From an uncultured Planctomycetia bacterium (lineage in GTDB: Bacteria > Omnitrophota > Gorgyraeia > Tantalellales > Tantalellaceae): a stretch of DNA of 64,000 bases. Where the stretch lies: the NCBI GenBank assembly GCA_964409365.1, contig CAYPCX010000004.1, forward strand, positions 21,015 to 85,014, read 5' to 3'. This document shows, piece by piece, positions 17,782 to 37,568 of this stretch. Under the pieces are notes generated by a model, which saw only the letters and a list, made by a program, of their open reading frames with translations, did not search any database and had not been told where the DNA came from. The translations under genes and the position numbers were made by a program. How positions within the stretch are numbered: position 1 is the first letter of the stretch; every line of letters starts with the position of its first letter.

Positions 17782-18368
17782 AGATCATAAATGATCTTAT
17801 CCTTATATTCCTGGCTGCCGTCATCACGAACAACTTCGTGCTGACGTACTTTCTGGGCATATGTCCCTTTATAGGCGTATCGAACAAGATAGACAGCGCG
17901 ATAGGGCTCGGTATGGCCACGACGTTCGTAATGACCATGGCCGCGACGGTCACGTGGATCATATATCATTACATACTTGTTCCGTTCAACCTGGAGTTTT
18001 TGCAGTACGTAACGTTCATCATAGTTATAGCGAGTTTCGTGCAGTTCGTGGAGATGTTTATAAAGAAGGTCTCTCCGCCTCTTTATAAGGCGTTAGGTAT
18101 TTTCCTTCCGCTTATCACCACGAACTGCGCAATTCTGGGTCTTACGCTTTTCATGGTGCTTAAAGATTACGAGTTCCTCGAGTCGGTCATCTTCGGTTTC
18201 GGCGCGGGTGTGGGTTTTACGCTGGCCCTTGTTCTCATGGCCGGGATACGCGAAGAACTCGAGTTCGCCGACATCCCGGGACCCCTTAAAGGGTCGGGCA
18301 TCACCCTGATACTGGCGGGGATGCTTGCCCTGGCGTTCATGGGTTTCGGCGGTATTATAAGCAGGTGA
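17778..18368 (+). CDS. rnfA: Rnf complex subunit A
   Basis: RnfA/NqrE family; position in operon. Confidence 0.85.
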   Translation: MKIINDLILIFLAAVITNNFVLTYFLGICPFIGVSNKIDSAIGLGMATTFVMTMAATVTWIIYHYILVPFNLEFLQYVTFIIVIASFVQFVEMFIKKVSPPLYKALGIFLPLITTNCAILGLTLFMVLKDYEFLESVIFGFGAGVGFTLALVLMAGIREELEFADIPGPLKGSGITLILAGMLALAFMGFGGIISR

Positions 18369-18410
18369 TCCGTTGCGTGAGGATCGAGAGTTTAGATGTC
18401 AGGTCTTAGG

Positions 18411-18572
18411 GGTCAGAAGACAGAGGACAGAAGGACGTAGATGTCTGGAGGATATTAGTTGTTAGCTTTTAGTTCTTAGTTTTTAGTCGTACAACTCATG
18501 ACTAACAACTTACAACTCAACACTTGATACTGGTAACTGGTAACTGGTAACTGGTAACTGGTAACTGGTAAC
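18411..18572. repeat. IR-R core (18411..18530, reverse complement of 11596..11715) followed by (CTGGTAA)x6
   Basis: manual reverse-complement comparison; few mismatches. Confidence 0.85.
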
Positions 18573-18591
18573 AGAACACACAATATGAACC

Positions 18592-19401
18592 ATGGATAAT
18601 CTGATGATAACGGCGATATTGAGCATGGCGGGACTGGCGATAGCGTTCGCGGCGGTCCTTGCGTTCGCCAACACGAAATTAAGGGTAGAGGAAGACCCGA
18701 GGGTGGACGTCATCAACCATCTTCTACCAGGGATCAATTGCGGCGCGTGCGGGTACCTCAGCTGCCACGACCTTGCGGAGCACGTGGTAAGGGAGGGGGA
18801 GGATCCCGCGAAATGCCGTGTAGTGGACGAGGAGACCAGGGAAAAACTTCTTGAGCTGACGGGCAGAGAGGGCGAAACGACTTATCCCTACATACCGCTT
18901 GTGCGGTGCGCGGCCGAATGGGAGCACAAGAAGAAAGAAGGAGTGGAGTATAAAGGCATCAAAACGTGCGCGGCGGCTAACCTCGCCTTCGGCGGGGGCA
19001 TGGACTGTGAATACGGCTGCATGGGGTTCGGCGACTGTGCCGAAGTATGTCCTTTCGACGCGCTCCATATGGAAAATGGCCTTCCCCGGCTCGACCAGGA
19101 GAAATGCACCGGTTGCGGAAAATGCGTCGAGGCATGCCCGCGCAACATCATAGTCCTTCAGGAGAAAAGGTTCGAGAAATTGTTTTACGTCGCTTGCAGC
19201 ACGCATGACGGGGCCTTAAGGGTCAGAGAGATCTGCAAGGTCGGCTGTATAGCCTGCGGGATATGCGAGAAACTTTCCCAGGAAGGGTTTTTCAAGGTAA
19301 CGGACAACCTCTCAAGGGCGGATTACTCCAAACAGGCCGACCCCGAAAAGGTAAGGCCCATAGCCGCCAAATGTCCGACGAAGGTGATAAAGGAAATTTA
19401 G
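18592..19401 (+). CDS. rnfB: Rnf complex subunit B (polyferredoxin)
   Basis: N-terminal TM; CGACGYLSC cluster; CTGCGKCVEACP and additional 4Fe-4S motifs. Confidence 0.85.
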   Translation: MDNLMITAILSMAGLAIAFAAVLAFANTKLRVEEDPRVDVINHLLPGINCGACGYLSCHDLAEHVVREGEDPAKCRVVDEETREKLLELTGREGETTYPYIPLVRCAAEWEHKKKEGVEYKGIKTCAAANLAFGGGMDCEYGCMGFGDCAEVCPFDALHMENGLPRLDQEKCTGCGKCVEACPRNIIVLQEKRFEKLFYVACSTHDGALRVREICKVGCIACGICEKLSQEGFFKVTDNLSRADYSKQADPEKVRPIAAKCPTKVIKEI

Positions 19402-23249: not shown

Positions 23250-23279
23250 TTGACATAACTAACTATTTTATGTTATAAT
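23250..23279 (+). promoter_or_regulatory. sigma70-like promoter TTGACA-18-TATAAT in AT-rich region upstream of giant ORF
   Basis: ttgacataactaactattttatgttataat read in sequence. Confidence 0.5.
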
Positions 23280-23344
23280 GCCGCTACTTAAATTTATTAA
23301 ATTAACAACTATGTCCAATATGACTGAAGTTTAGCGGCTAATAT

Positions 23345-26300
23345 ATGAATAATTACTTTAACATACATAGATTGTGGTTCAAAACAGTTGCGACAGGCGT
23401 AGTATGCCTGTTCCTTCTGAATAATTTCTCCTTCGCGCTGGAACCGACCACGGGTCAAAGATCCTGTCATACCCTTTCTCCGCAGTCACGATTCCCATTC
23501 GTGATCAAAGATAGAGTAAATGAAACGGAACTCACGCAGAGGCTCCAGAATGACGCGGGGCTGATATACGTGAGCCTGCTGATAGGAAAGGTCCTGGCTG
23601 CCAACGGTAGCGTGATCAGCGACAGAGGCTTAAGAACGCTGATCGAAAGACACATTCTGCATATAGAACCTGTAAGTTTTGATTGGGAAAACCTCAGGAA
23701 AGAAGGGAAGACCTTTTGTCTTCCTTATACCGAAAAGGGCGGCAACCGGACAAGGATCCTTCGTTATTATTTACCGGAGGATAAACCTGAAGAGGCAATA
23801 GGGAAACGGTCCATACCTCTCGGAACGGGAAATGCCAGGGTTATTTTAGAGGATACCCGGGTAGACGTATCGGAATCTGTGTTTATTTTTAACGTTGGCA
23901 CCGATGATATAAAGGGAGGAACAGGAAGAGAACTGTACGAGACAAATAGAATAGCTCAGGGAATTTATGATAGAGCGGCAGAGGCCCTGGGGTGCGATGT
24001 TTCCATGTTGTTTTTAGAGGAAAAGAACAGGGGTATAACCGAACGGTGGGCTGTCGGCAACATTTTGTATGGGGTAGCCCTGTATGCGGCATTTTCCGGC
24101 AGAATGGAGACGAATGATGCTCCGATCGCGCTGGCCGGTAACAGTATGGGTGAGATAGGAGCCCTTATCGTGAGCGGCGCCGTGTCTTTGGAGGACGGTG
24201 TCAGGCTTGCCCGGTTTTGTGGACATTTTTTTGAGACGGTCGTAGATAAGGTCGATTATGGCGTCGTCATACTGGAAGGCATTGAGAGTGATGCTATCAA
24301 GGGTTTTCTTGATCCCGGAAAGGTCGAGCTGTTCCAGGATGTTTCTCCCAGCAGCATTTCCCTGGCTGTAAGCAGGGATGTCGACCATGAAGAACTGGTC
24401 AACCGGTTAAAAGAGGCCGGAGCGAGAAGAGCGCAATATTTCGAAAAGCCTTTGGTCAAAGGGTCTCATGTAAGCTGGTACAGTCGTTATGGGCAGGGCC
24501 TTGTAGATCAGATCAGGGAAATGAAGATAAGCGATCCGGAGATCCCCGTTATCTCGCCCGCGACAGGGGAGATCCTCACGACCGCTGACCAGGTAAGGGA
24601 AGATATCCAGACGCAGTTTTTTAGGCCGATCGCATGGCGCGGTGTGGTAGATAAGGCCGTGGAAAGCGGCGCAAGATCGATGCTGGCCTTCGGGCCGGGA
24701 TGGCGGATCATAAAAAGAACAGAATCGATGGGTTCCGGTATTGAGATTATCCCGGCGACGGATCTTGCGGAGCTTGAATCCTTGAAACATAAGGTCAGGG
24801 GGTTCGGTTCCGAGAATTTAAGGCCGGATATCGGTACTGTGGTGAAAGGGCAGGATGGGCATACTTATGAAATCAAAGAGATAATAACGACCGGGGGAAC
24901 AGCCATTATTTTCGGGGCCAGGGATATGGAAACGAGCAAGAACGTCGCGATAAAATTCCTGGATTTTTCTATTGTGCCGGAACCGGAAGAATTTATAAAG
25001 CTGTTCAAACGGGAAGTGGATGTTTTGAAAAAAGGGTTCACGTTCGCGCCTGGTTTTTATGACTGGAATATCGTCGATGATCCCAAAGGTTATGGTTGGA
25101 TAGCTATGGAAAAGCTCGAAGGCGTTGAATTGTGGAAATGGGCAGCGGATAAATATCAGGATCAGACGATAGGTGTGCAGGAGAAGGTGAGAGATATAGT
25201 AGAAATAGTGCAGAAAGTCCTCAACCATATGAGTGCCTTATATGAAAACGGCATTCAGTATCGCGAAGTGAACCGGAAAAATATTATCGTTACTCCGGAG
25301 AGCGAACCGAAGCTAGTAGATTTCGTCGGCGCGTGCGTTCCCGGGCATGACCCAATACCATTGAATAAACTTCCGTGCACCCCGAACTATTTACCGCCTG
25401 ATAGACACCGTGAAATAAAACTCAAAGGTCCGGGGGTCCTTGACGATGTGACAACTCCGCAGTACGACGTTTTTCAGATGGGCGTGTTGCTGTTCCACCT
25501 GGCTCGCATGACAGGCCCACCTGATGACGGTTCTTATTGGGATGTCTCATTCACATACGAGACATATACCCGGGAAAAGATCGAAGATATGTTGCCGCCT
25601 GCTTGGAAAAGGTTTGCCGGTGTTATTTTTAAAGCCACCGCTCGGGAGCTTGAAGACCGCTACGAGAGCGCGGAAGAAATGAAACGCGCCATTGAGGAGC
25701 AGGAAGATGCACCAGGTTCCGAAGGATTTGGTGATGGGACTCATGGCCCGGATTTCGGAAAATCAAACCGAAAAAAGTTCTGTTTAGTCGCAATGGGCGC
25801 GGTATCTCCCTGGGTGGTGCTGATTCTATTAGCTGGCATGGTCATATGTGATATGGTCTACGGCGTAATAAACCACGAAAGGTTCTACCAGGTGATCCTC
25901 AACAAACACCCGAAGCTTACCCTCGCGCTTAAAAACCTCTTCTACCGCCAGTACTTGCCTGATCTTATCTCAAAACCCCTCCAGAGGTGGGCTGTTTCAG
26001 CGCTGGGCCGTTTGATGGACAAGATAAAAGAATTCACCGATAAACTCCCGGGAATAAGATTTAGGGATCCAGTTGTTGTCATGGAGGCCGAACTTGCGGG
26101 GACGGGAGACAAAGTAATCAGTGACATCGGCTTCCAGGTGCCGATCGTATTCGAGATGTCCAAGTCCGGCAGAAAGGGCAGAGGAAGGGGATCCAATAAA
26201 AGAAGGAAACAGATGTCCAAACGGCCCCCGGCCGCAGAGGAGCCCAAACCATACGATGACCTGATCTCCTGCGCGGGATATGCTTTAAATAACCTGGTGA

Positions 26301-29300
26301 TCGTCAGGGAACAACCTGAGATGCTACAAGCGGCAAAAGATTTTTACGCTTATTTATCTGAAGCAGGGAAAGACATCTTGGACCAGTTGAATATAGATGA
26401 GAACAAACTACAGGATATAAGATCGATTTTGGAAGGAAGGGGTTTGTCTCCGGACATGGTCCGGTGTTTGAGGCAGGATGCGGAGATCATAACCGGCAGA
26501 ACGAAGGGTAAAGGTACGGTCAAAGCCTCCCCGAAAAGATTTTCGGACGATTATGAAATAGTCGAGGTCGCCGATGTAAAAACACTTGTTCCCGTTATTA
26601 TGTATGTTCAGGAAATGAAAGCGCGTGAAGTCACGGATGCGGAACTCTCATTATACGCGGTGACTGATGATGATTTGAGAAAAGGAGTTCGGATGCCGGA
26701 GAAATTACCGGCCGCAAAAGAGATGCTTTACAGGAAAGCGTTGAGAAACCTGAAAGATGTAAATTGGTACAAAAGGGGCTGGCAGGAAGTTCAGGGTTTA
26801 TCCCCGGCGAATAAACGTTTTCTGAAAGAAAAAGCGGAAGAGATATGCGGGGATAAACTTGAAAAGTGCTGGGGTTTTGTAGAAGGCATTTCAAGCGAGC
26901 AGGATTATGCCGAGAAACTAATGAGAACTGAGATTGCCACCGTGAACAGTATGCGTGATTTCACGGAGTTTATAATATTGTTGGCGTGTATTTACGGAGG
27001 CGAGCAGACGCATGATGAGATGCGCGTGGCCTTGGAAAATATAGAAAAAGAGCATGAAAATGCCGCCCTTCTCGGTGATGCGCCTGTTCTCGACAGACTT
27101 GACGAAGATGTATCGGTAAATGTAGGGACTTTCGCAAAGATCGCTTTTTCCTTTCTTGAACATGAAAAGGGCTTGGAAAGAGACAGTAAAGAGTACAGGG
27201 CGATACTGGATGCGGTACGGCGTATAAATTCCTCCGCTAAAGTGCAATGCCGGCCGGAATCGAGCGAGAGATGGATAAGGGACTTTTTGGCATGGATACA
27301 CGCGGGATTCAGGTATTATCTGATGCCGAAAGGCGGCGAGATATACGACGATCGGCATGGGCCGGGTGTGTTGCGTGAAGGCGGGGCCATTGTTCCGGGA
27401 AGGGCGGTAACACCCTTTACACTGGTATCCGGTGCCGTAAAAACTTCGGACGCCGAGCTTTTCTCCGCTGAGGCGGGGAAACTGGGAATATTTACTTATG
27501 TCCTTCCTCCCGGGTTTGTGACATGCCGGATATCTTCTACCGGAAGGAATATAATCCTTAAAACGGGGCACATTGATGTAGTCATGGGTGTTGTTCCGCC
27601 GGAGTTTACAAGCGATGGCAGAGCCAAACTCCTGATGGATCCGAGTTATCACAACCTGGTGAAAGACAACCCCGAATTTCTGCGTCTTTTGGAAGAACAG
27701 GGTTCTAATATGGATGTGGTCCTAATACATCCGGAAGAAACTTACCTTAACCTGGCCAATTTCAGCTCGCTCCTGGATGAAAATGGGCAGGTCAAACTGC
27801 TTTTTAATCACGACAAAGGCCTTACTTTGCCATATTTGAATTTGAAAACGGGTGTTCTTTTCCAGACGGATATGGAAATAACGGGAATGGCGGTTCTTAG
27901 GGGCCTGGTAAGGTGTATGACAAATATGCTTCCCGGGAGCTACGTAAAGGGAGGCGCCTCTACCAGCATCGTGATCCGTGATAGCGGTATGCCACCCGGT
28001 GTGGCGACAGGCCTTCATGCGTTAAGTAAGGACCCGGAACTGAAAAGGGTGTTGCAGGAGCTTTGGATAAATAGATTGACGATAACTGGGACTAAATTTC
28101 GTCCTATGTCCCTGGTCCATTATGATTCGTCAACCCGGAGGATTCTCGTCCAGTTGGGGAATGATCTTGTAAATGATCCCAGCGCCGCCTGCGATTATGT
28201 TATTAATTACTTAGAAGCAACCCGGCAGCGTCTGTGCCAGGATATGGGTATATCTGTCCAGGGGTTTGGTGATACCCGACAGATGGGTGGATCGGCCCCG
28301 GCTCCGGCCGGTATGTTCCCGTGGATGTGGCGCGTCTATGATCCGATAAAAAGAGGTCTTGAGAAGAGGGACTGGCCGGCGCGCCGGATCGCCGGTCTGA
28401 TAGGCGGCCTGGAAGAGCTGGGGATCGCGGGCCTGGTCATGAACGGGGCAGCTTTTGCGTTAAGTTATTTTTGCGGGATGCCTTTTATAACAGCTCTTCT
28501 GGTGACTTCAGCGGTCGCGGTGCCGTTTTTTCCGGCAGGACATATTAGAGGACGGTATTATATTCAAGGAGGGGGATTTGCCCCCGCTTTGCCTTCTAAT
28601 TTCTGGAAGGATATGGGCGTCCTTACAGTTCTTGGACTTACGACAAGATCCCTGCAGCTATTGCCTGTCGCAATGGTATGCGTGTTTAACCTTAATCCTG
28701 CCTTTACGCTGGTCGGCATCCCGCTTGCCGTTATCGCGCATGCTTATTATAACCATTCCGTAGCGCCCGAACGCAACCGCCCTCTCGGCATGCCATGGAA
28801 AGGTAAACCCCACAAGTGGACGCCGGAACGTATATCTGAAGAGCTTCGCATGATGTATTTTGACGGAGTGGATTCAAGAGGTGTGAAGTGCACACGTGAA
28901 GACCTTCGGATCGAAAAAATAAGAGACCATTATCAGGGTCTTGCTGTTGCGGTCCCGAGGACTTGGAAGGAAATGCTGAAGGAACAGGGAGTATCAGAGA
29001 ACAGCCGCCTTTATATTTACATGTCCGGGGAAGGCAGAAATCCCAGGGAAGGTATTAATAAGGCAGGATGGGAGTATTTCTGGGCGACGATCGGAGTGAA
29101 TTACGAAAGAGATATTGAAAAGAAACCGGGTGCTGCAGAAGGGGCTTATATACCGAACGCGACCGATAGCGGCATAGAACACCGTGATTTGAAAAAGTTC
29201 GTTCCGGAAGAAGATGAGCTGTTCGGTATTGTCAGGGAAATGTTGGGCGGGGAAGATCTCACTGAACACGAGATAGCTGATATCATCCTCAACGCGCCCG

Positions 29301-32038
29301 ATGATGTTATTTCAGATGATCAGAGATTCATTTTAAGGGAATATTGCGGACTTAACAAGAGCGGCGTAGCAACGATGGTAAAAGATATCGCTGAGGAAAT
29401 GGGCATCTCCACGACCGCCGTGATCGATTCGAGGAAGAGAGCTTGTGAGAAGATCTATAACTGGCTTAAAGCCCAGCAGAGAACGGAAGGGGCGGAAAGG
29501 CAGGATCTGATCTTGCGGGACGAACCGGATCTTTATTACAGATTACAGGAAATGGGCATTAATACTGTCATCGAGCTTTCGGATCTTACGGAGAACGAGT
29601 TCGCGGAACAGCCGGGAATAAATTCCTGGCACGTTTCTGTTGCTAAGCAAAAGCTTGTTGAAGCTGGCCTGGGAGGATTCCGTTCGCCGTCGTTAGGGAG
29701 GAGCGCCCCTATAGAAAACTTGAGTCTGGCTGTGGAAAACCCGGAAAGGGTTCATGCGCTTTTGAGGAAAAAAGGCGTAAACACCGTTGCGGTGCTTTTG
29801 AAGATCGGGGTAGGGGGGCTTGCGGATAGGCTGGGAAAAGAGGCGTCACGACATATCATTGCCATAAGAAGGGCGGTAGCGCCGCATGGTTGGGAATTAA
29901 GGTTCCCCGCTGCAGTGAGTAACAACGATCCCATAGAATGTCTGCCTTTTCCCGCTTGGCACGAGTACGATACTTGTCAAAGGCTCAGGGAGGTCAATAT
30001 CAAGACTATCGGCCAGCTTCGGGACAAGACCCGAATAGAGCTAAAAAGGGTCGAGGGTATAGGGCAGGCGCGGCTGGAGATCATCACGAGAACTCTTGCT
30101 TATTATGACAAAGAATTAAGGGTTGACAGCGCGTTGAAGGAAGAGGATTCGATAAGAAAGCTTTGGATCTCTGCTTTTAAATCAGAAAATGTTTATAGCG
30201 CCCTTGAAGGGGCTGGTATTATTACTATCGGCCAGCTTTTAGATAAGACAAGAAAGGATCTCTTGCGGATCCCCAAGATCGGCGAACGTGCCGTTGCCGC
30301 TATTGAGGAAAAACTGGCTGTCTACGGCTGGAGATTACGTCAGGAGAGCACGATCGATGGTGTTCCTGCCGATATTCCGGCCGGAAGTATCGAAAACGTG
30401 CTCAGCTATTTTTGTGATCAAGACATAACCGATCCTGGGAAAGCCCTTACGCTGGAGCAGGCAGCAGATCGTTTGGGGCTTTCACCCTGGACAATAGAGC
30501 CGGACATAAGGGCGTTGAGCCTGCACCTGGATCTTTTGGAGGTCGTTCCTCCGGGTGGGACGGGTAAAAAGAAGAGGTATTACGTCCCGGAAAGCGTGAA
30601 GAAGAAACTCGATAGGATACTCCCGGTCCTATCCCAATTCCGCGGTGAGAATCTCCGCCCGAAAGTCGCACTTCTCGATGAAGTCTACGAAAAAGAAATA
30701 TTCCCGATTCTTGCCCCGGAAAAAAGTATTAAGCTTGAGATGATAAGACCGTCACCGGAATTGGAAAACAGAATTGAAAAATTCAGAGGAGTCGTGAAAA
30801 AACTTACCGATGACATACAAGGATCTTATGACGAAGAGCGGGGAACTTATTCATCAAAAGAATACGAAGCCGTGATAGCTGCCTTCGTGAATAGCCATAA
30901 GCCGTCCAGCATAGGCTACTACCATCCTTCTCCTTCATGGGCTATTCCTATTTTTCTCGAACATTTAGGGATAAACGAAAGTGATATAATGCTGGAAGCG
31001 GGAAGCGGAAAAGCTATTGTATCTTTTGAGGCCGCTTGTTTGTTCGGCGCTCGCGCGACGGCGGTGGAATATAGCGAAGCCTTCCACGTGTACGCCGGAC
31101 TGATACAAAAGGGGTTAATAAAAGAGGGTGTGCTGGAAGACAAACATGTGACTTTGTTCAATAAAGATTTTCTGGAGATGGATTTCTCTGAATACTCGCT
31201 GATCTATTACCAGTCACAAGGGACGCGCAAGAAGGAAGAACTGCTTAAGAAGATGTTGCAGATCAAACCGGGTGGCAGGATATTGATCTACGCGGGATAT
31301 GAACCCGAGATAGAGGACGAACTCAATGCGAATCCGGAGTTCGAAGCGAAGAAACTACAGATCGAAGGGCACCCCGGTGCTTTAGAGATGAGGGTCTATA
31401 CCAGGGTCGCCCGAGCGGATGAGGATGAGAAGCCGGTGGTCGATATTGCCAGCGAGGACAAGATCGCTCAGGATTTCATAGATGCGGTTATTCTGACGAT
31501 CGACGCGCTGGGAAGAAGATCCGGCAGGCAGAACAAGAAGATGATGATCGGTATTGACACAAGCTGGATACCGGAAGAGCAGCGGCATTCATCCGCGATG
31601 GTGCAGACCCTACTGGCGGCGATAAAAGATGCGCTTAGGGAGATAGGGCGGGAGGACATCGTTTTACTGGATGATAGTGACCCGGAGGGGTTAGCAGAGC
31701 AGCTCCGGACGGAAAGCGGGAAGACGGGAGTACCGCTTTCAAATATCGCGATAGTAAGTGCCGAAAAGACGTTCGAAGGAACGGACATTTTCGAGGAATT
31801 CAAGGGCGAGAGCAGGGAACAGGGCGCGTTTTTTGCGAAGGTGCCGCTGCCGGAAAAAGGACTTTCAAAGGATCTTGACATCAATATCGTCAAGATGTTG
31901 ACGATATTGATGAAGCATATATCCGACCCGGACAGCCCCCGCGAATTCTATTTGCCGATACCAGACGCGAAAGAGGTAGGGATAGACAAGCTCGGGGATG
32001 TTCATAAAGCCCGCGCCGAGGCGTTGATCAGGGCGTAA
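23345..32038 (+). CDS. Giant multidomain membrane protein (2,897 aa): N-terminal signal/anchor, FabD-like acyltransferase, degenerate protein-kinase-like domain, several TM blocks, sigma-70 region-4-like HTH (x2), four RNAP alpha-CTD-like HhH repeats, class I SAM methyltransferase
   Basis: single uninterrupted ORF; domain motifs identified by eye (see findings). Confidence 0.8.
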   Translation: MNNYFNIHRLWFKTVATGVVCLFLLNNFSFALEPTTGQRSCHTLSPQSRFPFVIKDRVNETELTQRLQNDAGLIYVSLLIGKVLAANGSVISDRGLRTLIERHILHIEPVSFDWENLRKEGKTFCLPYTEKGGNRTRILRYYLPEDKPEEAIGKRSIPLGTGNARVILEDTRVDVSESVFIFNVGTDDIKGGTGRELYETNRIAQGIYDRAAEALGCDVSMLFLEEKNRGITERWAVGNILYGVALYAAFSGRMETNDAPIALAGNSMGEIGALIVSGAVSLEDGVRLARFCGHFFETVVDKVDYGVVILEGIESDAIKGFLDPGKVELFQDVSPSSISLAVSRDVDHEELVNRLKEAGARRAQYFEKPLVKGSHVSWYSRYGQGLVDQIREMKISDPEIPVISPATGEILTTADQVREDIQTQFFRPIAWRGVVDKAVESGARSMLAFGPGWRIIKRTESMGSGIEIIPATDLAELESLKHKVRGFGSENLRPDIGTVVKGQDGHTYEIKEIITTGGTAIIFGARDMETSKNVAIKFLDFSIVPEPEEFIKLFKREVDVLKKGFTFAPGFYDWNIVDDPKGYGWIAMEKLEGVELWKWAADKYQDQTIGVQEKVRDIVEIVQKVLNHMSALYENGIQYREVNRKNIIVTPESEPKLVDFVGACVPGHDPIPLNKLPCTPNYLPPDRHREIKLKGPGVLDDVTTPQYDVFQMGVLLFHLARMTGPPDDGSYWDVSFTYETYTREKIEDMLPPAWKRFAGVIFKATARELEDRYESAEEMKRAIEEQEDAPGSEGFGDGTHGPDFGKSNRKKFCLVAMGAVSPWVVLILLAGMVICDMVYGVINHERFYQVILNKHPKLTLALKNLFYRQYLPDLISKPLQRWAVSALGRLMDKIKEFTDKLPGIRFRDPVVVMEAELAGTGDKVISDIGFQVPIVFEMSKSGRKGRGRGSNKRRKQMSKRPPAAEEPKPYDDLISCAGYALNNLVIVREQPEMLQAAKDFYAYLSEAGKDILDQLNIDENKLQDIRSILEGRGLSPDMVRCLRQDAEIITGRTKGKGTVKASPKRFSDDYEIVEVADVKTLVPVIMYVQEMKAREVTDAELSLYAVTDDDLRKGVRMPEKLPAAKEMLYRKALRNLKDVNWYKRGWQEVQGLSPANKRFLKEKAEEICGDKLEKCWGFVEGISSEQDYAEKLMRTEIATVNSMRDFTEFIILLACIYGGEQTHDEMRVALENIEKEHENAALLGDAPVLDRLDEDVSVNVGTFAKIAFSFLEHEKGLERDSKEYRAILDAVRRINSSAKVQCRPESSERWIRDFLAWIHAGFRYYLMPKGGEIYDDRHGPGVLREGGAIVPGRAVTPFTLVSGAVKTSDAELFSAEAGKLGIFTYVLPPGFVTCRISSTGRNIILKTGHIDVVMGVVPPEFTSDGRAKLLMDPSYHNLVKDNPEFLRLLEEQGSNMDVVLIHPEETYLNLANFSSLLDENGQVKLLFNHDKGLTLPYLNLKTGVLFQTDMEITGMAVLRGLVRCMTNMLPGSYVKGGASTSIVIRDSGMPPGVATGLHALSKDPELKRVLQELWINRLTITGTKFRPMSLVHYDSSTRRILVQLGNDLVNDPSAACDYVINYLEATRQRLCQDMGISVQGFGDTRQMGGSAPAPAGMFPWMWRVYDPIKRGLEKRDWPARRIAGLIGGLEELGIAGLVMNGAAFALSYFCGMPFITALLVTSAVAVPFFPAGHIRGRYYIQGGGFAPALPSNFWKDMGVLTVLGLTTRSLQLLPVAMVCVFNLNPAFTLVGIPLAVIAHAYYNHSVAPERNRPLGMPWKGKPHKWTPERISEELRMMYFDGVDSRGVKCTREDLRIEKIRDHYQGLAVAVPRTWKEMLKEQGVSENSRLYIYMSGEGRNPREGINKAGWEYFWATIGVNYERDIEKKPGAAEGAYIPNATDSGIEHRDLKKFVPEEDELFGIVREMLGGEDLTEHEIADIILNAPDDVISDDQRFILREYCGLNKSGVATMVKDIAEEMGISTTAVIDSRKRACEKIYNWLKAQQRTEGAERQDLILRDEPDLYYRLQEMGINTVIELSDLTENEFAEQPGINSWHVSVAKQKLVEAGLGGFRSPSLGRSAPIENLSLAVENPERVHALLRKKGVNTVAVLLKIGVGGLADRLGKEASRHIIAIRRAVAPHGWELRFPAAVSNNDPIECLPFPAWHEYDTCQRLREVNIKTIGQLRDKTRIELKRVEGIGQARLEIITRTLAYYDKELRVDSALKEEDSIRKLWISAFKSENVYSALEGAGIITIGQLLDKTRKDLLRIPKIGERAVAAIEEKLAVYGWRLRQESTIDGVPADIPAGSIENVLSYFCDQDITDPGKALTLEQAADRLGLSPWTIEPDIRALSLHLDLLEVVPPGGTGKKKRYYVPESVKKKLDRILPVLSQFRGENLRPKVALLDEVYEKEIFPILAPEKSIKLEMIRPSPELENRIEKFRGVVKKLTDDIQGSYDEERGTYSSKEYEAVIAAFVNSHKPSSIGYYHPSPSWAIPIFLEHLGINESDIMLEAGSGKAIVSFEAACLFGARATAVEYSEAFHVYAGLIQKGLIKEGVLEDKHVTLFNKDFLEMDFSEYSLIYYQSQGTRKKEELLKKMLQIKPGGRILIYAGYEPEIEDELNANPEFEAKKLQIEGHPGALEMRVYTRVARADEDEKPVVDIASEDKIAQDFIDAVILTIDALGRRSGRQNKKMMIGIDTSWIPEEQRHSSAMVQTLLAAIKDALREIGREDIVLLDDSDPEGLAEQLRTESGKTGVPLSNIAIVSAEKTFEGTDIFEEFKGESREQGAFFAKVPLPEKGLSKDLDINIVKMLTILMKHISDPDSPREFYLPIPDAKEVGIDKLGDVHKARAEALIRA

Positions 32039-32040
32039 TA

Positions 32041-32077
32041 CAGGTCTCAGGTCACAGGTTTCAGGTAGCAGGTCACA
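32041..32077. repeat. (CAGGTNN)x5 heptad array just after giant ORF stop
   Basis: caggtct caggtca caggttt caggtag caggtca. Confidence 0.8.
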
Positions 32078-32142
32078 CAGCATAAAACCCTTGCGCATGA
32101 GTTCTATATTTGCTATAATTTGACACTCTGAACGAGATTTGA

Positions 32143-32217
32143 CGCGGGGTGGAGCAGAGGTAGCTCGTGAGGCTCATAACCTCAAGGTCGGCGGTTCGAT
32201 TCCGCCCCCCGCAACCA
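32143..32217 (+). tRNA. tRNA-Met (CAT), initiator-like (C1:A72 mismatch, close to E. coli tRNA-fMet)
   Basis: CGCGGGGTGGAGCAG...GCTCATAACC...GGTTCGATTCC...CCCCCGCAACCA. Confidence 0.85.
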
Positions 32218-32221
32218 ATAT

Positions 32222-32253
32222 AAAAACCCGGCTGATTTTTAGCCGGGTTTTTC
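32222..32253 (+). terminator. Rho-independent terminator (cccggct-N7-agccggg + T5), same stem as terminator at 11055
   Basis: read in sequence. Confidence 0.7.
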
Positions 32254-32262
32254 TTACCCCGG

Positions 32263-32300
32263 TACCTGAAACCCGACACCCGACACCTGATACCTAACCC
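32263..32300. repeat. (ACCYGAN)x5 heptad array upstream of purB promoter
   Basis: acctgaa acccgac acccgac acctgat acctaac. Confidence 0.8.
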
Positions 32301-32301
32301 A

Positions 32302-32330
32302 TTGACACCGCTAATTATATATGCTATAAG
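32302..32330 (+). promoter_or_regulatory. sigma70-like promoter TTGACA-17-TATAAG for purB
   Basis: read in sequence; RBS gggaggg before ATG 32383. Confidence 0.5.
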
Positions 32331-32382
32331 AAATATTCCGATTTAGTTTTTTATTCCCCTTTATTTACGGGAGGGAGCGAAA

Positions 32383-33675
32383 ATGATAGAAAGATATACG
32401 CGCCCCGGAATGGGCAGGATCTGGGCGGACGAGAACAGGTTCCGCAAGATGCTGGACATAGAGATACTGGCCTGCGAAGCGTTCGCGAAACAGGGGCTTA
32501 TACCCAAAGACGCCCTGAAGAACATCAAGGAAAAAGCCGATTTCGATGTCGATCGCATCAAGGAGATAGAAGCCAGGACCCACCACGACGTCGTTGCCTT
32601 CATAAAGAGCATTTCGGAATATGTCGGTGAAGACGCCAAGTATATACATTTCGGCCTCACCTCGAGCGATGTGTTGGACACGGCCCTTTCGGTGCAGATG
32701 GTCGAAGCGATGGACCTTCTTCTGGAAGGGGCAAAGGCCCTCCGGGAAGCGCTGAAAGACAAAGCGCACAGGTACAAGAAGACCCCCATGATGGGCCGTT
32801 CGCACGGCGTGCATGCCGAGCCCATATCTTTCGGCCTGAAGATGGCGCTTTTTTGTAAAGAGATGGACCGTAATATCCACAGGTTGGAGGACGCCAGGGA
32901 AACGATAGCGGCGGGGAAGATATCGGGTTCGGTGGGGACTTTCGCTAACGTAGACCCCGTTGTGGAAGAATATGTATGCAAGCGGCTCGGGCTTAAACCG
33001 GCGGGTGTATCCAGCCAGGTCCTTCAGAGGGACAGGCATGCACAGTACCTGAACGCCATCGCCATCGTGGGAGCGACCCTGGAAAAAATAGCCCTTGAAG
33101 TGCGCGGTCTCCAGAAGACCGAGATCGGCGAAGTGCAGGAGTTTTTCGCCTCGGGCCAGACGGGTTCTTCGAGCATGCCGCACAAGAAGAATCCCATCAT
33201 CTGCGAGCGCATAACGGGACTTGCGAGGGTCTTGAGAGGTAACGCCATGGCGGCCATAGAGAACGTCGCCCTGTGGCACGAGCGGGACATATCGCATTCT
33301 TCGGTCGAACGCATAATAATACCGGATTCCGCTATCCTTCTTGATTATATGCTGGATAAAGCTACGAAACTGGTGGAAAAGCTCGTCGTGAACGAGGACA
33401 GGATGCTGGAGAACATGGGCGCGACAAAAGGCCTTGTGTATTCACAGCACGTGCTTCTCGAGCTTATAAAAAAAGGGGCGACACGCGTCGACGCTTATGA
33501 CATCGTCCAGGAGTTGTCGCTGAAGAGCCACGAACACGGTAGAGAGTTCAAGGACCTTCTTCTTGAGAGCGAGAAAATAAAAAAGTACCTTTCGGAAAAA
33601 GAGATCGAGGATTGCTTCAGCCTTGATTATCATCTCCGGCATATTGACAGCATCTTCAAGAAGATCGGTCTATAG
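32383..33675 (+). CDS. purB: Adenylosuccinate lyase
   Basis: MIERYTRPGMGRIW N-terminus; GSSSMPHKKNP fumarate-lyase signature. Confidence 0.95.
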   Translation: MIERYTRPGMGRIWADENRFRKMLDIEILACEAFAKQGLIPKDALKNIKEKADFDVDRIKEIEARTHHDVVAFIKSISEYVGEDAKYIHFGLTSSDVLDTALSVQMVEAMDLLLEGAKALREALKDKAHRYKKTPMMGRSHGVHAEPISFGLKMALFCKEMDRNIHRLEDARETIAAGKISGSVGTFANVDPVVEEYVCKRLGLKPAGVSSQVLQRDRHAQYLNAIAIVGATLEKIALEVRGLQKTEIGEVQEFFASGQTGSSSMPHKKNPIICERITGLARVLRGNAMAAIENVALWHERDISHSSVERIIIPDSAILLDYMLDKATKLVEKLVVNEDRMLENMGATKGLVYSQHVLLELIKKGATRVDAYDIVQELSLKSHEHGREFKDLLLESEKIKKYLSEKEIEDCFSLDYHLRHIDSIFKKIGL

Positions 33676-33696
33676 TTCCCGATAAATTCACCATTT

Positions 33697-34698
33697 ATGA
33701 AAAAGATATCCTATAAAAGCGCCGGTGTCGATATCGACAGGGCCGACCGCCTTATCCGGGACGTGAAGAAACTCGTTAATACCACGAGAGTCAGGGGAAG
33801 CATGGATACGGTCGGGGGGTTCGGGGGCTTTTTTGACCCTTCCGCCGCAGGGATAAAGGATCCTGTACTTGTCGCCTCTACCGACGGGGTGGGAACGAAG
33901 CTCAAGATAGCTCAACTGGCCGGGAAACACGATACCGTGGGAATAGACCTTGTGGCGATGTGCGTGAACGATATCCTTTGCTCGGGCGCGCGCCCGCTGT
34001 TTTTCCTGGATTATTTCGCTACGGGGAAACTCGAAGAAAAGGTCTGGAGCGATGTGATCAAGGGCGTAGTCATAGGTTGTCACGAGGCCAGGTGCGCTCT
34101 TCTGGGGGGTGAAACGGCCGAGATGCCCGGCATGTACGCGAAGGGTGAATATGACCTTGCCGGGTTCGCCGTCGGAGCGGTAAGCAGGAAAAAGGTCATC
34201 GACGGGAAAAAGATCAGGCCGGGGGACGTGCTTCTGGGTCTGGCTTCCAACGGGCTGCATTCCAACGGTTATTCGCTCCTCAGGAAGGTTTTTCCGAAAA
34301 GATACCTGAAAAAGAACCATAGTCTTTTTCTTAAACCCACTGTTATATATGTGCGGCCTTTTCTCGGGCTTGCGCGGAACGTTACGATAAAAGGAGCTGC
34401 CAATATAACGGGCGGCGGTTTCTATGACAATATCCCGAGGATGCTTCCCGCCGGAGTGAAAGCTGTCATCAGCAAGGGAAGCTGGAACGTGCATAAAGTG
34501 TTCAAGCTTATACGGGAAAGGGTGAAGATAAGCGAAAAAGAACTTTACCGGACGTTCAACATGGGGATCGGGATGGTACTTGCCCTTTCTCCGCAGGACG
34601 CCGAAAAAGCGCGAAAGATGCTTGCTAAAAAATTCAAACTGAAAAGCTGGGTCATCGGCAAGATCGTTAAAGGTAAAAAACGCGTCGAGCTCGTATAA
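33697..34698 (+). CDS. purM: Phosphoribosylformylglycinamidine cyclo-ligase (AIR synthetase)
   Basis: YKSAGVDIDRAD N-terminus; PurM-family glycine-rich motifs. Confidence 0.9.
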   Translation: MKKISYKSAGVDIDRADRLIRDVKKLVNTTRVRGSMDTVGGFGGFFDPSAAGIKDPVLVASTDGVGTKLKIAQLAGKHDTVGIDLVAMCVNDILCSGARPLFFLDYFATGKLEEKVWSDVIKGVVIGCHEARCALLGGETAEMPGMYAKGEYDLAGFAVGAVSRKKVIDGKKIRPGDVLLGLASNGLHSNGYSLLRKVFPKRYLKKNHSLFLKPTVIYVRPFLGLARNVTIKGAANITGGGFYDNIPRMLPAGVKAVISKGSWNVHKVFKLIRERVKISEKELYRTFNMGIGMVLALSPQDAEKARKMLAKKFKLKSWVIGKIVKGKKRVELV

Positions 34699-34733
34699 CT
34701 CAATACTCGACACTCAATACTTGATACTTGATA
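34698..34733. repeat. (CTYRANA)x5 heptad array between purM and purD
   Basis: ctcaata ctcgaca ctcaata cttgata cttgata. Confidence 0.8.
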
Positions 34734-34748
34734 AGAAGGAATAAACAC

Positions 34749-36029
34749 ATGAACATACTTGTTATAGGTTCCGGGGGCAGGGAGCACGCCCTGTGCTGGA
34801 AGATAAGGCAAAGCCCGAAGGTAAAGGAACTTTACTGCTCGCCCGGTAACGGGGGTACGGCGGCGGAAGCGATAAACGTGAAACTGAACGTTGACGAGCA
34901 CCACGCGGTGGTGGATTTCTGCAAAGCGAAGGATGTATCCCTAGTGGTCGTGGGGCCTGAAGCGCCCCTGGCGGTGGGATTAGCGGACGATCTGGAAAGG
35001 GCAGGGATAAAGGTGTTCGGGCCTTCTTATGCCGCGGCCAGGATGGAGTCCAGCAAGATATTCGCGAAGGAACTGATGGGACGTTATGGCATCCCGACGG
35101 CGCGTTTCAGGATATTCGACGAGCTCGAAAAGGCGGAAGAATATATCCGCTCGGAGGGCGCTCCCATAGTGGTGAAAGCGTACGGCCTGGCAGCCGGTAA
35201 GGGCGTGGTCGTGACCGAGGACGTCGAAGAAGCGGTGCTGGCCGCCCGCGCGTGCCTGATAGACAATAAGTTCGGCGCGGCAGGCAGCAGTATTATCGTG
35301 GAAGAGTGCTTGATAGGGGAAGAAGCCTCGATACTGGTCGTAACGGACGGGAGGAACGTGATACCCCTGGCCTCGAGCCAGGACCACAAGCGTGTCTTTG
35401 ACGGCGACACCGGCCCTAATACCGGGGGGATGGGCGCATATTCGCCGGCGCCCGTCATAGACGAGGCGCTTTTTGAAAACATAATGAAAGAAATAATCGC
35501 TCCGACGATAGAAGGTCTGCAGGAGGAGGGCATCGTTTACAGGGGCGTACTTTACGCCGGGATCATGGTGACGGATTCGGGCCCGAAGACGCTGGAATAC
35601 AACGTGCGTTTCGGCGATCCCGAGGCCGAGGCGATACTTCCGCGCCTTAAGTCGGACCTGGTGGAACTTCTGGAAGCGACGGCGGACGGGGACATTTCCG
35701 GGGTAAAGCTTAACTGGGACGAGCGGGAATGTGTCAGTGTGGTGATGGCCTCGGGCGGGTATCCGGGAGGCTACGAGAAAGGCAAGGAGATAACCGGCCT
35801 TAAGGACGCGGCCGATGAAGGCGCCATAGTCTTCCATGCCGGGACGCGTCTCGAGGACGACAAGCTGGTGACTTCCGGCGGAAGGGTCCTCAACGTCGTG
35901 GGTATGGGCTCGGGTATCAAGGAAGCAGTGGCGAATACCTACAGGGCGGTAGAGAAAGTGCGTTTTGACAATATGCATTATCGCAGGGATATAGGTTTCA
36001 GGGCCATTGAGAGGGCCGGGAATGAATGA
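34749..36029 (+). CDS. purD: Phosphoribosylamine-glycine ligase
   Basis: MNILVIGSGGREHAL; ATP-grasp motifs; ORF track start 34728 likely too long. Confidence 0.9.
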   Translation: MNILVIGSGGREHALCWKIRQSPKVKELYCSPGNGGTAAEAINVKLNVDEHHAVVDFCKAKDVSLVVVGPEAPLAVGLADDLERAGIKVFGPSYAAARMESSKIFAKELMGRYGIPTARFRIFDELEKAEEYIRSEGAPIVVKAYGLAAGKGVVVTEDVEEAVLAARACLIDNKFGAAGSSIIVEECLIGEEASILVVTDGRNVIPLASSQDHKRVFDGDTGPNTGGMGAYSPAPVIDEALFENIMKEIIAPTIEGLQEEGIVYRGVLYAGIMVTDSGPKTLEYNVRFGDPEAEAILPRLKSDLVELLEATADGDISGVKLNWDERECVSVVMASGGYPGGYEKGKEITGLKDAADEGAIVFHAGTRLEDDKLVTSGGRVLNVVGMGSGIKEAVANTYRAVEKVRFDNMHYRRDIGFRAIERAGNE

Positions 36030-36071
36030 CAAATGTCGAAATTCAAAAGGCAAAATGTCCGGGAGAATGAT

Positions 36072-36563
36072 ATGAAAAAGAAACCTCAGGTCAGTATAGT
36101 CATGGGAAGCGATTCGGACCTTCCCGTCATGAAAGAGGCAAGCGCTGTTCTCAGGGAGTTCAGCATACCCCATGAAGTGAGGATACTTTCGGCGCACCGT
36201 TCGCCGGACATGACGTCGGTCTTCGCGAAAGGCGCCAGGAAGAAGGGCATAAAGGTCATAATCGCCGGCGCGGGCGGAGCGGCCCACCTGGCGGGGGTGA
36301 TAGCGTCGCATACTACGCTCCCGGTCATAGGCGTTCCCATGGAGACGAAGCTGGACGGCATAGATTCGCTTCTTTCGACCGTGCAGATGCCGTCGGGGGT
36401 GCCGGTAGCGACAGTATCCATAGGGAAGGCGGGCGCGGTAAACGCCGCGATACTGGCGGCGCAGATAATCGGGGCGAACAATGCCGCGATCGGCAAAAAG
36501 GTGGGAACTTATAAGAAAAAGCTCGTCCGGAAGATCCGGGAGAAGAACCGGAAGCTGAAATAG
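36072..36563 (+). CDS. purE: N5-carboxyaminoimidazole ribonucleotide mutase
   Basis: GSDSDLPVMKEA and SAHRSP signatures; GGGAGA RBS before ATG 36072. Confidence 0.9.
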   Translation: MKKKPQVSIVMGSDSDLPVMKEASAVLREFSIPHEVRILSAHRSPDMTSVFAKGARKKGIKVIIAGAGGAAHLAGVIASHTTLPVIGVPMETKLDGIDSLLSTVQMPSGVPVATVSIGKAGAVNAAILAAQIIGANNAAIGKKVGTYKKKLVRKIREKNRKLK

Positions 36564-36565
36564 GG

Positions 36566-37027
36566 ATGAAAGACGTAAAGGCTATACTATTTGTTTGCAC
36601 GGGTAACAGCTGCAGAAGTATAATGGCTGAGGCTTACCTGAAGAAAAGGCTTGCCGAGGAAGATATGCCGATCGAGGTCAGGTCTGCCGGGACGCTGGGG
36701 ATAGACGGGATGACGCCCACGAAAGAAACGGTCATGGTCCTTGAAAAAGAAGAGATAGACGCGGCTGTTTATGAGTCTAAAGAACTGACGGAGGAACTTG
36801 TAGATTGGGCCGACCTTGTGCTCGTCATGGAACCTTCCCATAAGAACAGGGTCATAGAGATGGTGCGGGGGTCGGAGAACAAGATCCTTTACCTCGGACA
36901 GTTCGACGCAGATGGGGGAGATATCGTCATACCTGACCCCATAGGCAGGCAGCTTGCCTTTTACAGGGCGTCCTTCGGGAAAATAAAACGATCGATAGAG
37001 GGGTTGATAGAATGGCTAAAAGAATAG
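36566..37027 (+). CDS. Low-molecular-weight protein-tyrosine phosphatase family (LMW-PTP/ArsC-like)
   Basis: CTGNSCRS (CX5R) P-loop and DP general-acid motif. Confidence 0.8.
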   Translation: MKDVKAILFVCTGNSCRSIMAEAYLKKRLAEEDMPIEVRSAGTLGIDGMTPTKETVMVLEKEEIDAAVYESKELTEELVDWADLVLVMEPSHKNRVIEMVRGSENKILYLGQFDADGGDIVIPDPIGRQLAFYRASFGKIKRSIEGLIEWLKE

Positions 37028-37476
37028 TTATCGGGGCCGATCACGGGGGGTTCCCGCTCAAGGAGAAGTTGAAGAAAGCGCTTAAAAAAGCGCGGTACAG
37101 GATCGACGACGTGGGTACGGGTTCCGGGGAATCGTGCGACTATCCGGAGTACGGGTTTGCCGTGGCCGAAGAAGTATCGAAAAAGAAAGCGGCAAGGGGC
37201 ATCATCATATGTAAAACAGGTATAGGCATGGCTGTCGTAGCGAACAAAGTGCCCGGGGTAAGGGCGGGCGTCTGCAATTCCGTGAAAGACGCGGTTTCTT
37301 CCCGTGAACATAATGATACTAACGTGCTGGTCCTGGCGGCCACGAAGGTCGGCCCCGGGAAAGCCCTTGATATCACTAAGGCCTGGCTTAGGACGAAAGC
37401 GGAAGGCGGTCGGCACGCCAGGCGCGTAAGGCAGATCAAGGAGTACGAGAAGAAAGTATTCAAGAAGGCCAGATGA
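37012..37476 (+). CDS. rpiB: Ribose-5-phosphate isomerase B
   Basis: RIVIGADHGGFPLKEKL N-terminus; RpiB/LacAB family length. Confidence 0.85.
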   Translation: MAKRIVIGADHGGFPLKEKLKKALKKARYRIDDVGTGSGESCDYPEYGFAVAEEVSKKKAARGIIICKTGIGMAVVANKVPGVRAGVCNSVKDAVSSREHNDTNVLVLAATKVGPGKALDITKAWLRTKAEGGRHARRVRQIKEYEKKVFKKAR

Positions 37477-37482
37477 TAGAAT

Positions 37483-37545: not shown

Positions 37546-37568
37546 CGCATAGTATACGGAGGCACAAC

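Follow-up and report, generated by a model that had tools for sequence, protein, structure and literature searches.

We analysed a stretch of 64,000 nucleotides from an uncultured bacterium assigned to the Omnitrophota (GenBank assembly GCA_964409365.1, contig CAYPCX010000004.1, positions 21,015 to 85,014 of the forward strand), which is called the window below and is numbered from its first letter. The subject of the analysis was a giant open reading frame (ORF) on the plus strand at 23345..32038, which begins with ATG and, with the stop codon included in these coordinates, encodes a protein of 2,897 amino acids (aa). We found that this 2,897-aa reading frame is one real gene. With moderate confidence, we consider it to be a real single gene whose product is also a member of the class of mosaic, membrane-embedded multi-domain proteins of Omnitrophota, and a small one for that class. 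An earlier note on this DNA, made from its letters alone, had called the ORF an unprecedented domain fusion. The exact combination of domains indeed looks like a singleton when compared with other sequences, but a multi-enzyme membrane class had already been described and five of the modules are shared with other long proteins, so that the claim of an unprecedented fusion stood only for the exact combination. The finding establishes neither a new kind of system nor any function.

The 2,897-aa reading frame is a single gene

The frame runs through 2,897 codons without interruption, and a frame of this length would stay open by chance with a probability of about 1e-60. Codon usage was compared with a reference of 14 other genes of the window (Rnf, eno, pur and glyA genes and four further ORFs). 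The giant ORF tracked this reference in frame 1 alone, with correlations of r 0.59-0.75 in each block of 400 codons, whereas in the other two frames the correlation was r <=0.20. As the codon signal was seen in frame 1 in every block, the ORF is coding over its full length in one frame. Moreover, exactly the same 2,897-aa product is recorded on three contigs (NCBI, JGI, ENA, Logan), the longest of which has 213 kb, and in the Logan assembly of SRR14699969 the 2,897-aa gene was called after the same PfkB gene. The single uninterrupted ORF of the earlier note was thus borne out by the open frame, by the frame-1 codon signal and by the identical product on the three contigs.

A different version of the gene was uncovered by sequence comparison with one JGI contig, Ga0310068_1001289 (locus L001). 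This contig is 100% identical to the window at 23256-29410 and at 29599-39646 (16.2 kb), and the intervening 188 bp (29411..29598) are missing, the gap lying at position 6155/6156 of the contig. Without these 188 bp the reading frame is shifted, and gene calling on the contig gives two products of 2,037 aa and 768 aa. A frameshift or stop codon pointing to several fused genes had been named beforehand as the observation that would speak against the single gene; what was found is one contig that is split in this way and an intact product on three others. The identity over 16.2 kb save for the frame-breaking gap is what favours the explanation that the long frame is an artefact or a decaying gene, i.e., an assembly chimera, a fusion of at least two adjacent genes or a nascent pseudogene, the true products being those of 2,037 aa and 768 aa. 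The 188 bp, however, are in frame with both flanks and encode the recognition helix of a helix-turn-helix (HTH) domain (EEMGIS|TTAVIDSRKRACEKI) together with the first half of the first of several helix-hairpin-helix (HhH) repeats, so that in the window each junction is bridged by one element, the left by the recognition helix and the right by HhH repeat 1. The 768-aa product of the deleted version, on the other hand, would start within the repeat array. No tandem or direct repeats were found at the borders of the 188-bp segment that could account for a collapse in the window assembly. Because of the record on three contigs, the independent Logan call, the HTH and HhH elements that continue in frame across the junctions and the uniform codon signal, the intact form was favoured, and the deletion was attributed either to faulty assembly or to a pseudogene allele present in a minority. 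We therefore regard an artefact or a decaying gene as very unlikely indeed.

A mosaic of modules shared with other long proteins

When aa 840-1830 of the protein were used in a HMMER search over 1.84 billion representatives, no protein besides the query itself matched the whole stretch. A word search with the whole protein returned only the protein itself and a relative of its N-terminal domain. No full-length relative was found in these searches, and no protein matched beyond one or two modules. At the same time, five modules, namely an N-terminal leader, a transmembrane (TM) module, a domain with pentein fold, a cluster of TM helices and a methyltransferase (MTase), were seen to recur, differently ordered, in proteins of 2-7.6 thousand amino acids (kAA). 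The 4,114-aa Omnitrophota protein P0039, which has GGDEF, PHP and SNF2 domains, showed a weak match to the leader, a match to the MTase module at its aa 736-920 (E=7e-39) and a match to the TM module at its aa 1409-1599 (E=2e-35), the order of the latter two being the reverse of that in the query. P0061 (3,328 aa) combines the pentein core with kinase, GNAT and TPR domains. All relatives with a named source (P0002, P0028, P0032, P0039, L005 and L007) are from metagenome-assembled genomes (MAGs) of Ca. Omnitrophota or Omnitrophica. This pattern suggests that the giant protein was built by shuffling modules which elsewhere are arranged differently and joined to other cargo.

In two preprints, the long proteins of Omnitrophota are described to combine signal peptides with numerous TM helices, roughly one for every 370 aa, to tile dozens of unrelated and divergent enzyme domains, among them kinases, methyltransferases, acetyltransferases and metabolic enzymes, and to be mostly sequence singletons (bioRxiv 10.1101/2023.11.21.568195; bioRxiv 10.64898/2026.06.07.730766). 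The nearest known class is the archaeovorin type of West-Roberts et al. 2023, corresponding to class 1, with a topology of signal peptide plus TM helices, of Nielsen & Lui 2026. The giant protein resembles these proteins in its predicted N-terminal signal and in its TM helices, which lie among unrelated divergent enzyme domains at about one helix per 400-500 aa (about six hydrophobic helices in 2,897 aa). Judged by hydropathy, at least five distinct domain types are punctuated by the signal and the TM segments. The content of methyltransferase and kinase-type domains is also similar: a 5BXY-like MTase fold was reported in one Omnitrophota giant (West-Roberts et al., bioRxiv 10.1101/2023.11.21.568195), and 5bxy was among the best PDB matches of our protein. 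Moreover, the giant protein is itself a sequence singleton, and it has direct module homology to members of 4-7.6 kAA. The exact fusion is unique, but it is found in a class where uniqueness is the rule. Giant Omnitrophota proteins of 10-147 kAA are experimentally unmanageable, and a 2.9-kAA member made by the same recipe could serve as a tractable model, which could address the insertion of the chain, its processing and the roles of the modules.

The pentein-fold domain and the membrane modules

The middle of the protein, about 830 aa that had been regarded as free of recognisable motifs, turned out to contain a conserved TM-proximal module and a domain of about 580 aa with a pentein fold, even though neither Pfam nor PDB gave sequence hits there. 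The latter is the best-conserved part of the giant protein and was missed by the earlier note. It was defined by 58 relatives, besides the query itself, in the HMMER search described above, and extends over aa 1064-1640 (26534..28264, plus strand, as are all features of the gene given below), where a helical N-terminal part is followed by the pentein-fold core. The pentein fold was revealed by fold comparison alone; searches with the query segment, with 18 relatives and with a profile against PDB gave no match in Pfam, NCBIfam or the PDB sequences. The relatives are either stand-alone proteins of 570-750 aa or parts of proteins of 1.4-7.6 kAA. In their alignment we observed the motifs WxRDxxAW, LxEGGNI, HIDTVIN, LFNKDKGxTLPRLNLK and GS[IL]RCxTNMLP. 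Invariant features of the family are a Cys near the C-terminus (GxxRCxTN), a His-x-Asp (HIDxV) and an Asp (WxRD), a set that resembles the FxRD, EGG, HxD and Cys motifs of arginine deiminases. The candidate catalytic residues D1313, H1409, D1411 and C1524 are conserved in 23/23, 47/49, 49/49 and 44/44 cases, respectively.

The known members of the pentein superfamily (DDAH, arginine deiminase, agmatine deiminase, PAD, amidinotransferase, AstB and ArgZ) are enzymes that modify guanidino groups, and it is their fold that is present here. The domain stands apart from them in two ways: its sequence matched no entry of Pfam, NCBIfam or PDB, and about 230 aa of conserved helical sequence are added to it as an N-terminal half. 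The stand-alone proteins P0016-P0029 and the locus L011 6001-7803 share the whole helical-plus-pentein domain with 32-38% identity, have no Pfam hit and apparently form a previously undescribed family within the superfamily of guanidino-modifying enzymes. Around one stand-alone homologue of the pentein-like type, the neighbouring genes (GT2, radical SAM and QueF) offered no clue to function. A Pfam-dark pentein-fold family with invariant Cys, His and Asp, occurring both alone and within long proteins, is new and directly testable.

The pentein-fold domain is flanked by two membrane modules. The TM/juxtamembrane module at aa 805-1010 (25757..26374) is the one shared with P0039 and is composed of a TM helix at aa 824-842 (hydropathy 2.55), a conserved juxtamembrane segment and a linker rich in Lys, Arg and Gly at aa ~930-960. 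Both the helix, which had been expected at aa 815-840, and the basic linker had been correctly noticed before. The second module, at aa 1650-1826 (28292..28822), is a cluster of about four hydrophobic helices (aa ~1692-1805) with basic residues on both flanks. This agrees with the TM cluster proposed earlier for aa 1680-1800, and the module matched segments of other long proteins (P0055, P0065, P0069 and P0070) at E=1e-17 to 2e-12.

The N-terminal signal and the leader domain

The protein starts with a predicted signal peptide or signal anchor at aa 1-32 (23345..23440), in which the basic residues R9 and K13 precede a hydrophobic core at aa 14-32 and the site SFA|LEP follows. The hydrophobic segment was evident from hydropathy, and the small-x-small site [AS]-[FY]-[AG] ahead of the predicted cut was kept in homologues. 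The N-terminal signal or anchor with FSFA|LEP that had been proposed was therefore confirmed as a conserved feature, its cleavage being a prediction.

The conserved leader domain that comes next (aa 33-170; 23441..23854) has the motifs TLxPxSRF, YxSxLIGKV, KEGKTFCLPY and LRYY, and contains a conserved, moderately hydrophobic stretch at aa 73-91. It showed 41-50% identity to four loci in MAGs of Omnitrophota and the PVC superphylum, as well as weaker matches in P0039 and P0032. Wherever the leader was detected in other long proteins, it stood at their very N-terminus and nowhere else. Signal and leader together (the N-terminal ~170 aa) match the extreme N-termini of long ORFs whose continuations are quite different: an ORF of 2,799 aa with PEP-utilizers domains, one of >3,515 aa with DHQ synthase and ArlX, and one of >1,238 aa with a PrmA-like MTase and Metallophos. 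The AlphaFold2 model of the leader had a pLDDT of 64 and gave no reliable fold match. A metagenome scan with aa 1-800 detected no relative, and a scan with the leader alignment found two loci only, apparently the same sequences as the loci L007 and L008 of the genome scan. A word-index search with aa 1-175 and aa 1820-2897 returned nothing; these are false negatives, since identical or 44%-identical sequences are present in that collection. This leader of about 140 aa, seen solely at the very start of long mosaic proteins, is new and directly testable.

In another Omnitrophota MAG (L002 1-15622 and L007 41-15056), two long genes stand head to tail. A gene for at least 2,197-2,399 aa with RelA_SpoT and GNAT domains is followed there by the 2,799-aa leader-bearing gene, and a pair encoding an extracytoplasmic function (ECF) sigma factor and a zf-HC2 anti-sigma factor is located a few genes downstream.

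The acyltransferase-like and kinase-fold domains

The region at aa 175-477 (23867..24775) is a divergent FabD-like acyltransferase or hydrolase domain. It matched TIGR00128 over 262/290 positions (E=3.4e-29) and FabD structures in PDB at E ~4e-18 (aligned to 3hjv and 3ptw). The scores did not reach the cut-offs of the curated models, being 102.2 bits vs 260.9 for TIGR00128, 25.9 vs 32.7 for PF00698 and 93 vs 298 for the MdcH model. The motifs GNSMGE and GSHVS aligned with GHSLGE and PSHC of 3hjv, and thus both the nucleophilic Ser (Ser267) and the catalytic His (His376) are kept. This full-domain alignment and the two residues are what the domain has in common with FabD and with the acyltransferase domains of polyketide and fatty acid synthases (PKS and FAS). 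Other residues differ. The His before the nucleophilic Ser of FabD is replaced by Asn (GNS instead of GHS), and the Arg that binds the malonyl carboxylate (R117 of E. coli) is replaced by Cys (LARFCGHF vs LVELRGQL). The N-terminal motif of FabD is FPGQGSQ; our domain reads FNVGTDD, so that GQGSQ is replaced by VGTDD. Furthermore, no ketosynthase, acyl carrier protein, ketoreductase or dehydratase domain was detected in the giant protein with Pfam and NCBIfam, i.e., the usual partner domains are missing. Because of the change from Arg to Cys, the loss of GQGSQ and scores far below the curated cut-offs, the sequence indicates that the domain is a Ser-His acyltransferase or hydrolase rather than a malonyl transacylase. 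The FabD-like acyltransferase assigned earlier to aa 175-470 was consequently supported in its fold and its Ser-His dyad, but not in the residues of a malonyl transacylase or at the level of family cut-offs.

The kinase-like domain, which the earlier note had placed at aa 495-760, was substantiated with an extent of aa 505-790 (24857..25714). It has a Hanks-type protein-kinase fold, passes the cut-off of PF00069 Pkinase (49.5 bits vs 31.7, E=5e-13) and aligns end to end with PknB (3f69, E=3e-14). VAIKF, FKREV and VDFVG correspond to VAVKV, FRREA and VDFGI of PknB, and the VAIK Lys, the alpha-C Glu and the DFG Asp are therefore kept, as in Hanks-type Ser/Thr kinases such as PknB and StkP. In PknB, too, a TM helix follows the kinase domain. 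The catalytic loop, in contrast, reads YREVNRKN instead of HRDVKPAN, with Glu in place of Asp and Asn in place of Lys, and DFG has become DFV. Since the HRD of the catalytic loop reads YRE, the domain is probably a pseudokinase. It also differs from PknB and StkP in having no PASTA or other known sensor domains and in following a signal-like N-terminus.

DNA-binding-type domains and the methyltransferase

The earlier note had proposed sigma-70 region-4-like HTHs, and this was not upheld. The first of them (EEMGISTTAVIDSRKRACEKI; aa 1968-2039, 29246..29461) may be assigned only weakly as a sigma-4/LuxR-type HTH: it matched TIGR02937 with E=4.8e-4 and 19.8 bits vs a cut-off of 42.9, and PF04545 with 14.4 bits vs 24.1, and thus cannot be classified as sigma-70 region 4. 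Several HTH families matched at E 0.01-0.05, with LuxR/GerE and HTH_10 scoring equally to sigma-4, which leaves a generic tri-helical HTH below all cut-offs. The second proposed HTH (aa ~2365) was not significant (E ~0.2).

The HTH is followed by four tandem units of about 65 aa (aa 2052-2330; 29498..30334), which resemble the HhH-containing C-terminal domain of the RNA polymerase alpha subunit (alpha-CTD) and together scored 55.2 bits with RNA_pol_A_CTD in three stretches. Taken singly against the PF03118 cut-off of 23.8 bits, repeat 4 passed (31.5 bits, E=1.4e-7) and none of the others did, with 19.0 bits (E 1.2e-3) for repeat 3, 12.3 bits (E 0.14) for repeat 1 and no match for repeat 2. Repeat 4 aligned over 55 residues with the alpha-CTD of B. 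subtilis (3gfk). We consider the sequence assignment of repeat 4 solid and that of repeat 3 probable, whereas repeats 1 and 2 are assigned by pattern only. Hence, of the four repeats claimed before, the last one and the region as a whole were confirmed, the third is marginal and the first two are candidates by pattern. Promoter-DNA binding, which had also been proposed, is too strong a label for a generic HTH plus a single solid alpha-CTD repeat. A BLAST self-comparison of aa 1821-2420 gave no significant internal repeats, which suggests that the alpha-CTD units are old and divergent. Unlike in RNA polymerase, the units form here a tandem array of up to four without the alpha N-terminal domain, three of them being too divergent to pass alone.

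The class I S-adenosylmethionine (SAM)-dependent MTase-like domain at aa 2508-2691 (30866..31417) contains motif I (LEAGSGKA), the acidic residue in AVEYSE and then KPGGRILIY. A direct sequence match to 5bxy (E=0.0034) was strengthened when a profile (A4) built from aa 2490-2700 and two homologous modules was compared with PDB: the best matches were 5fa8 (3.9e-8), 5bxy (1.1e-7) and the protein-lysine N-methyltransferase 5jwj (2.4e-7), and PIMT and DOT1L were also hit. With E values not above 1, this profile matched 84 PDB sequences; among the 60 of them that were listed, almost every one is a methyltransferase. The domain also matched mad2 of PADLOC (1.8e-6). None of the Pfam MTase families scored above its gathering threshold, the best being RrnaAD with 14.7 bits vs 24. 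By sequence, the domain is closest to small protein-lysine and DOT1-like enzymes. In the comparison with the crenarchaeal protein-lysine MTases (5fa8, 5jwj), 5bxy and DOT1, the match spans YxP(S/T)P, motif I and the beta-2 acidic residue up to KPGxR; the differences are the low identity and the fact that the MTase is embedded here in a giant membrane protein. A class I SAM MTase had been predicted at the very C-terminus. The profile confirmed the MTase, but it is followed by a tail of about 200 aa (aa 2692-2897; 31418..32035) with no detectable relatives.

Possible topology and alternative explanations

The distribution of charges and the domain residues kept or lost suggest how the protein could be arranged. 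The N-terminal signal would export the first segment (aa 33-815), comprising the leader, the acyl-hydrolase and the pseudokinase; this is suggested by the position of R9 and K13 before the first hydrophobic segment and by the conserved small-x-small site after it. Within the would-be exported part, the malonyl-binding residues are missing from the acyltransferase and the catalytic Asp from the kinase fold. The very basic linker after the second TM segment (TM2; linker at aa ~930-960) and the basic flanks of the helix cluster suggest that the pentein segment and the HTH/alpha-CTD/MTase segment would be held in the cytoplasm, on which side DNA and SAM would be accessible to the latter. The protein might then act as an envelope-anchored platform with an outward binding or hydrolase head and with inward macromolecule-modifying and DNA-binding modules, whose modifications could be those of arginine or guanidino groups and the methylation of lysine. 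We propose this particular topology and mechanism only tentatively and consider it rather doubtful.

Several points weigh against the favoured interpretation of one gene for an envelope-anchored member of the Omnitrophota class. Besides the assembly with the frame-shifting 188-bp deletion (Ga0310068_1001289), the segment KSNRKKF just before TM2 is also basic and opposes an outside location of aa 33-815, and the conserved, moderately hydrophobic stretch at aa 73-91 might form a helix by which the chain re-enters the cytoplasm. Moreover, localisation of such proteins based on TM helices is often unreliable, as stated by West-Roberts et al. (bioRxiv 10.1101/2023.11.21.568195). The class as published is defined at >=10 kAA, with catalogues starting from 10 or 30 kAA, and its genes are flanked by type II secretion system and type IV pilus (T2SS/T4P) genes and by glycoside hydrolase genes, often with SecA-like domains in the proteins. 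Our protein has only 2,897 aa and, by Pfam, no SecA_DEAD, C39 or S8 peptidase, dockerin or carbohydrate-active domains; its nearest flanks are housekeeping genes, and no secretion or pilus genes were seen in the flanks and in the larger window ORFs sampled, which are part of the ORFs of the window. The DNA-binding modules and the FabD-like domain, in turn, are absent from the published descriptions as far as these were considered.

Three other functions were weighed against the class assignment. Matches to the FabD and MdcH models and to PKS acyltransferase domains, the retained Ser-His dyad and the membrane association would fit a lipid or polyketide biosynthetic enzyme with regulatory appendages, in which the FabD-like domain loads malonyl or acyl units. 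The replacements in the malonyl-carboxylate Arg, GQGSQ and GHS, the scores of 102 vs 261 bits (FabD) and 93 vs 298 bits (MdcH), the absence of ketosynthase, acyl carrier protein, ketoreductase and dehydratase domains from the protein and the absence of fatty-acid-synthesis genes among the neighbours make this highly improbable, and a PKS/FAS identity was rejected on the missing partner domains and the altered acyltransferase residues. Hits in PADLOC and NCBIfam, those of the kinase domain to PD-T4-6, MkoA, mad6 and PglW and that of the MTase to mad2, could indicate a single-polypeptide anti-phage defence of the kinase-plus-methyltransferase type (MADS- or BREX-like). The kinase hits, however, reflect generic Ser/Thr-kinase similarity far under the family cut-offs, the kinase lacks the catalytic Asp, the MTase is nearest to protein rather than DNA methyltransferases, and the neighbours are housekeeping genes with no other MADS or BREX components nearby. 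Such a defence function is scarcely credible, and a defence-system identity was dismissed on the generic kinase and MTase similarity and the lack of partner genes.

The main rival to the class assignment is an exported multi-effector, the polypeptide or its fragments being delivered into a host or prey cell, where the kinase fold, the SAM MTase, the acyltransferase and the DNA-binding modules would act on host proteins, chromatin or RNA polymerase partners and the TM modules would insert in the target membrane, as may be likened to MARTX-like or polymorphic multi-effector toxins. This would account for the signal-like N-terminus with its conserved cleavage-type motif and for a leader shared only with long proteins; the pentein, the protein-lysine/DOT1-like MTase and the kinase fold belong to enzyme families that are typical protein modifiers, and the alpha-CTD repeats could mimic the RNA polymerase alpha subunit. 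Predatory or episymbiotic lifestyles have been reported for Omnitrophota, and an action on prey has been proposed for their giant proteins (bioRxiv 10.1101/2023.11.21.568195; bioRxiv 10.64898/2026.06.07.730766). The codon composition and the tRNA gene described below are likewise compatible with acquired cargo. Against it stand the kinase fold without catalytic Asp, the absence of flanking secretion-system, pilus or glycoside-hydrolase genes among the ORFs examined, and the absence by Pfam of an autoprocessing protease (C39, S8, CPD) and of RTX-type or pore-forming repeats. On this evidence we find a multi-effector unlikely. Its extended version is very unlikely; there, a dedicated route of export or insertion for a family of shuffled multi-effector proteins would be marked by the leader and by the recurring TM modules, and the 2.9-kAA member would be delivered to a host or prey cell and reprogram host transcription. 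The alpha-CTD array and the HTH would then dock on DNA or RNA polymerase partners, and nucleoid or chromatin proteins would be modified at their arginines and lysines by a new pentein enzyme and a DOT1/aKMT-like MTase.

Transcription signals and genomic neighbourhood

A sigma-70-type promoter-like site on the plus strand (23250..23279; TTGACA-18-TATAAT, with TG before the -10 hexamer, i.e., an extended -10) matches the consensus at 12/12 positions and ends 66 nt 5' of the ATG, within a 298-bp A/T-rich intergenic region. In the region, six promoter-like sites were observed vs 1.3 expected from shuffles, these being counts of consensus matches only. The JGI contig Ga0310068_1001289 starts at window position 23256, which is inside this site. 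Downstream, a tRNA-Met (CAT) gene lies on the plus strand at 32143..32217, 105 nt 3' of the stop codon of the giant gene, and directly 3' of it there is a 12-bp G+C-rich hairpin between A5 and T5 (32222..32252), which is a strong bidirectional terminator-like site. The consensus promoter ahead of the giant gene and the tRNA gene and hairpin behind it also speak for one real gene. A search for Rfam elements in the window found tRNAs only.

The GC content at third codon positions (GC3) of the giant gene was uniformly 0.535 and thus lower than the 0.62-0.73 measured in the reference genes. This lower GC3 and the adjoining tRNA-Met gene and hairpin suggest that the giant gene could have been inserted beside tRNA-Met, between purN/eno and purB-purM-purD-purE. 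The genes upstream are rnfCD(G)EAB, purN, eno and those for an HPP protein and a PfkB kinase, and downstream there are purB, purM, purD, purE, rpiB, glyA and nrdR. The only glycoside-hydrolase-like ORF among the window ORFs examined is 21 kb away from the giant gene.

In addition, the window contains at 14314-19401 a complete cluster for an Rnf-type ion-translocating ferredoxin:NAD+ oxidoreductase (rnfC, D, possibly G, E, A and B), which is followed by purN and eno. At 5211-10727, the genes for a 768-aa protein whose sole hit was a weak one to HEAT, for an HD_5-domain protein and for a PAS-PAS histidine kinase stand in a row and may be a signalling cluster.

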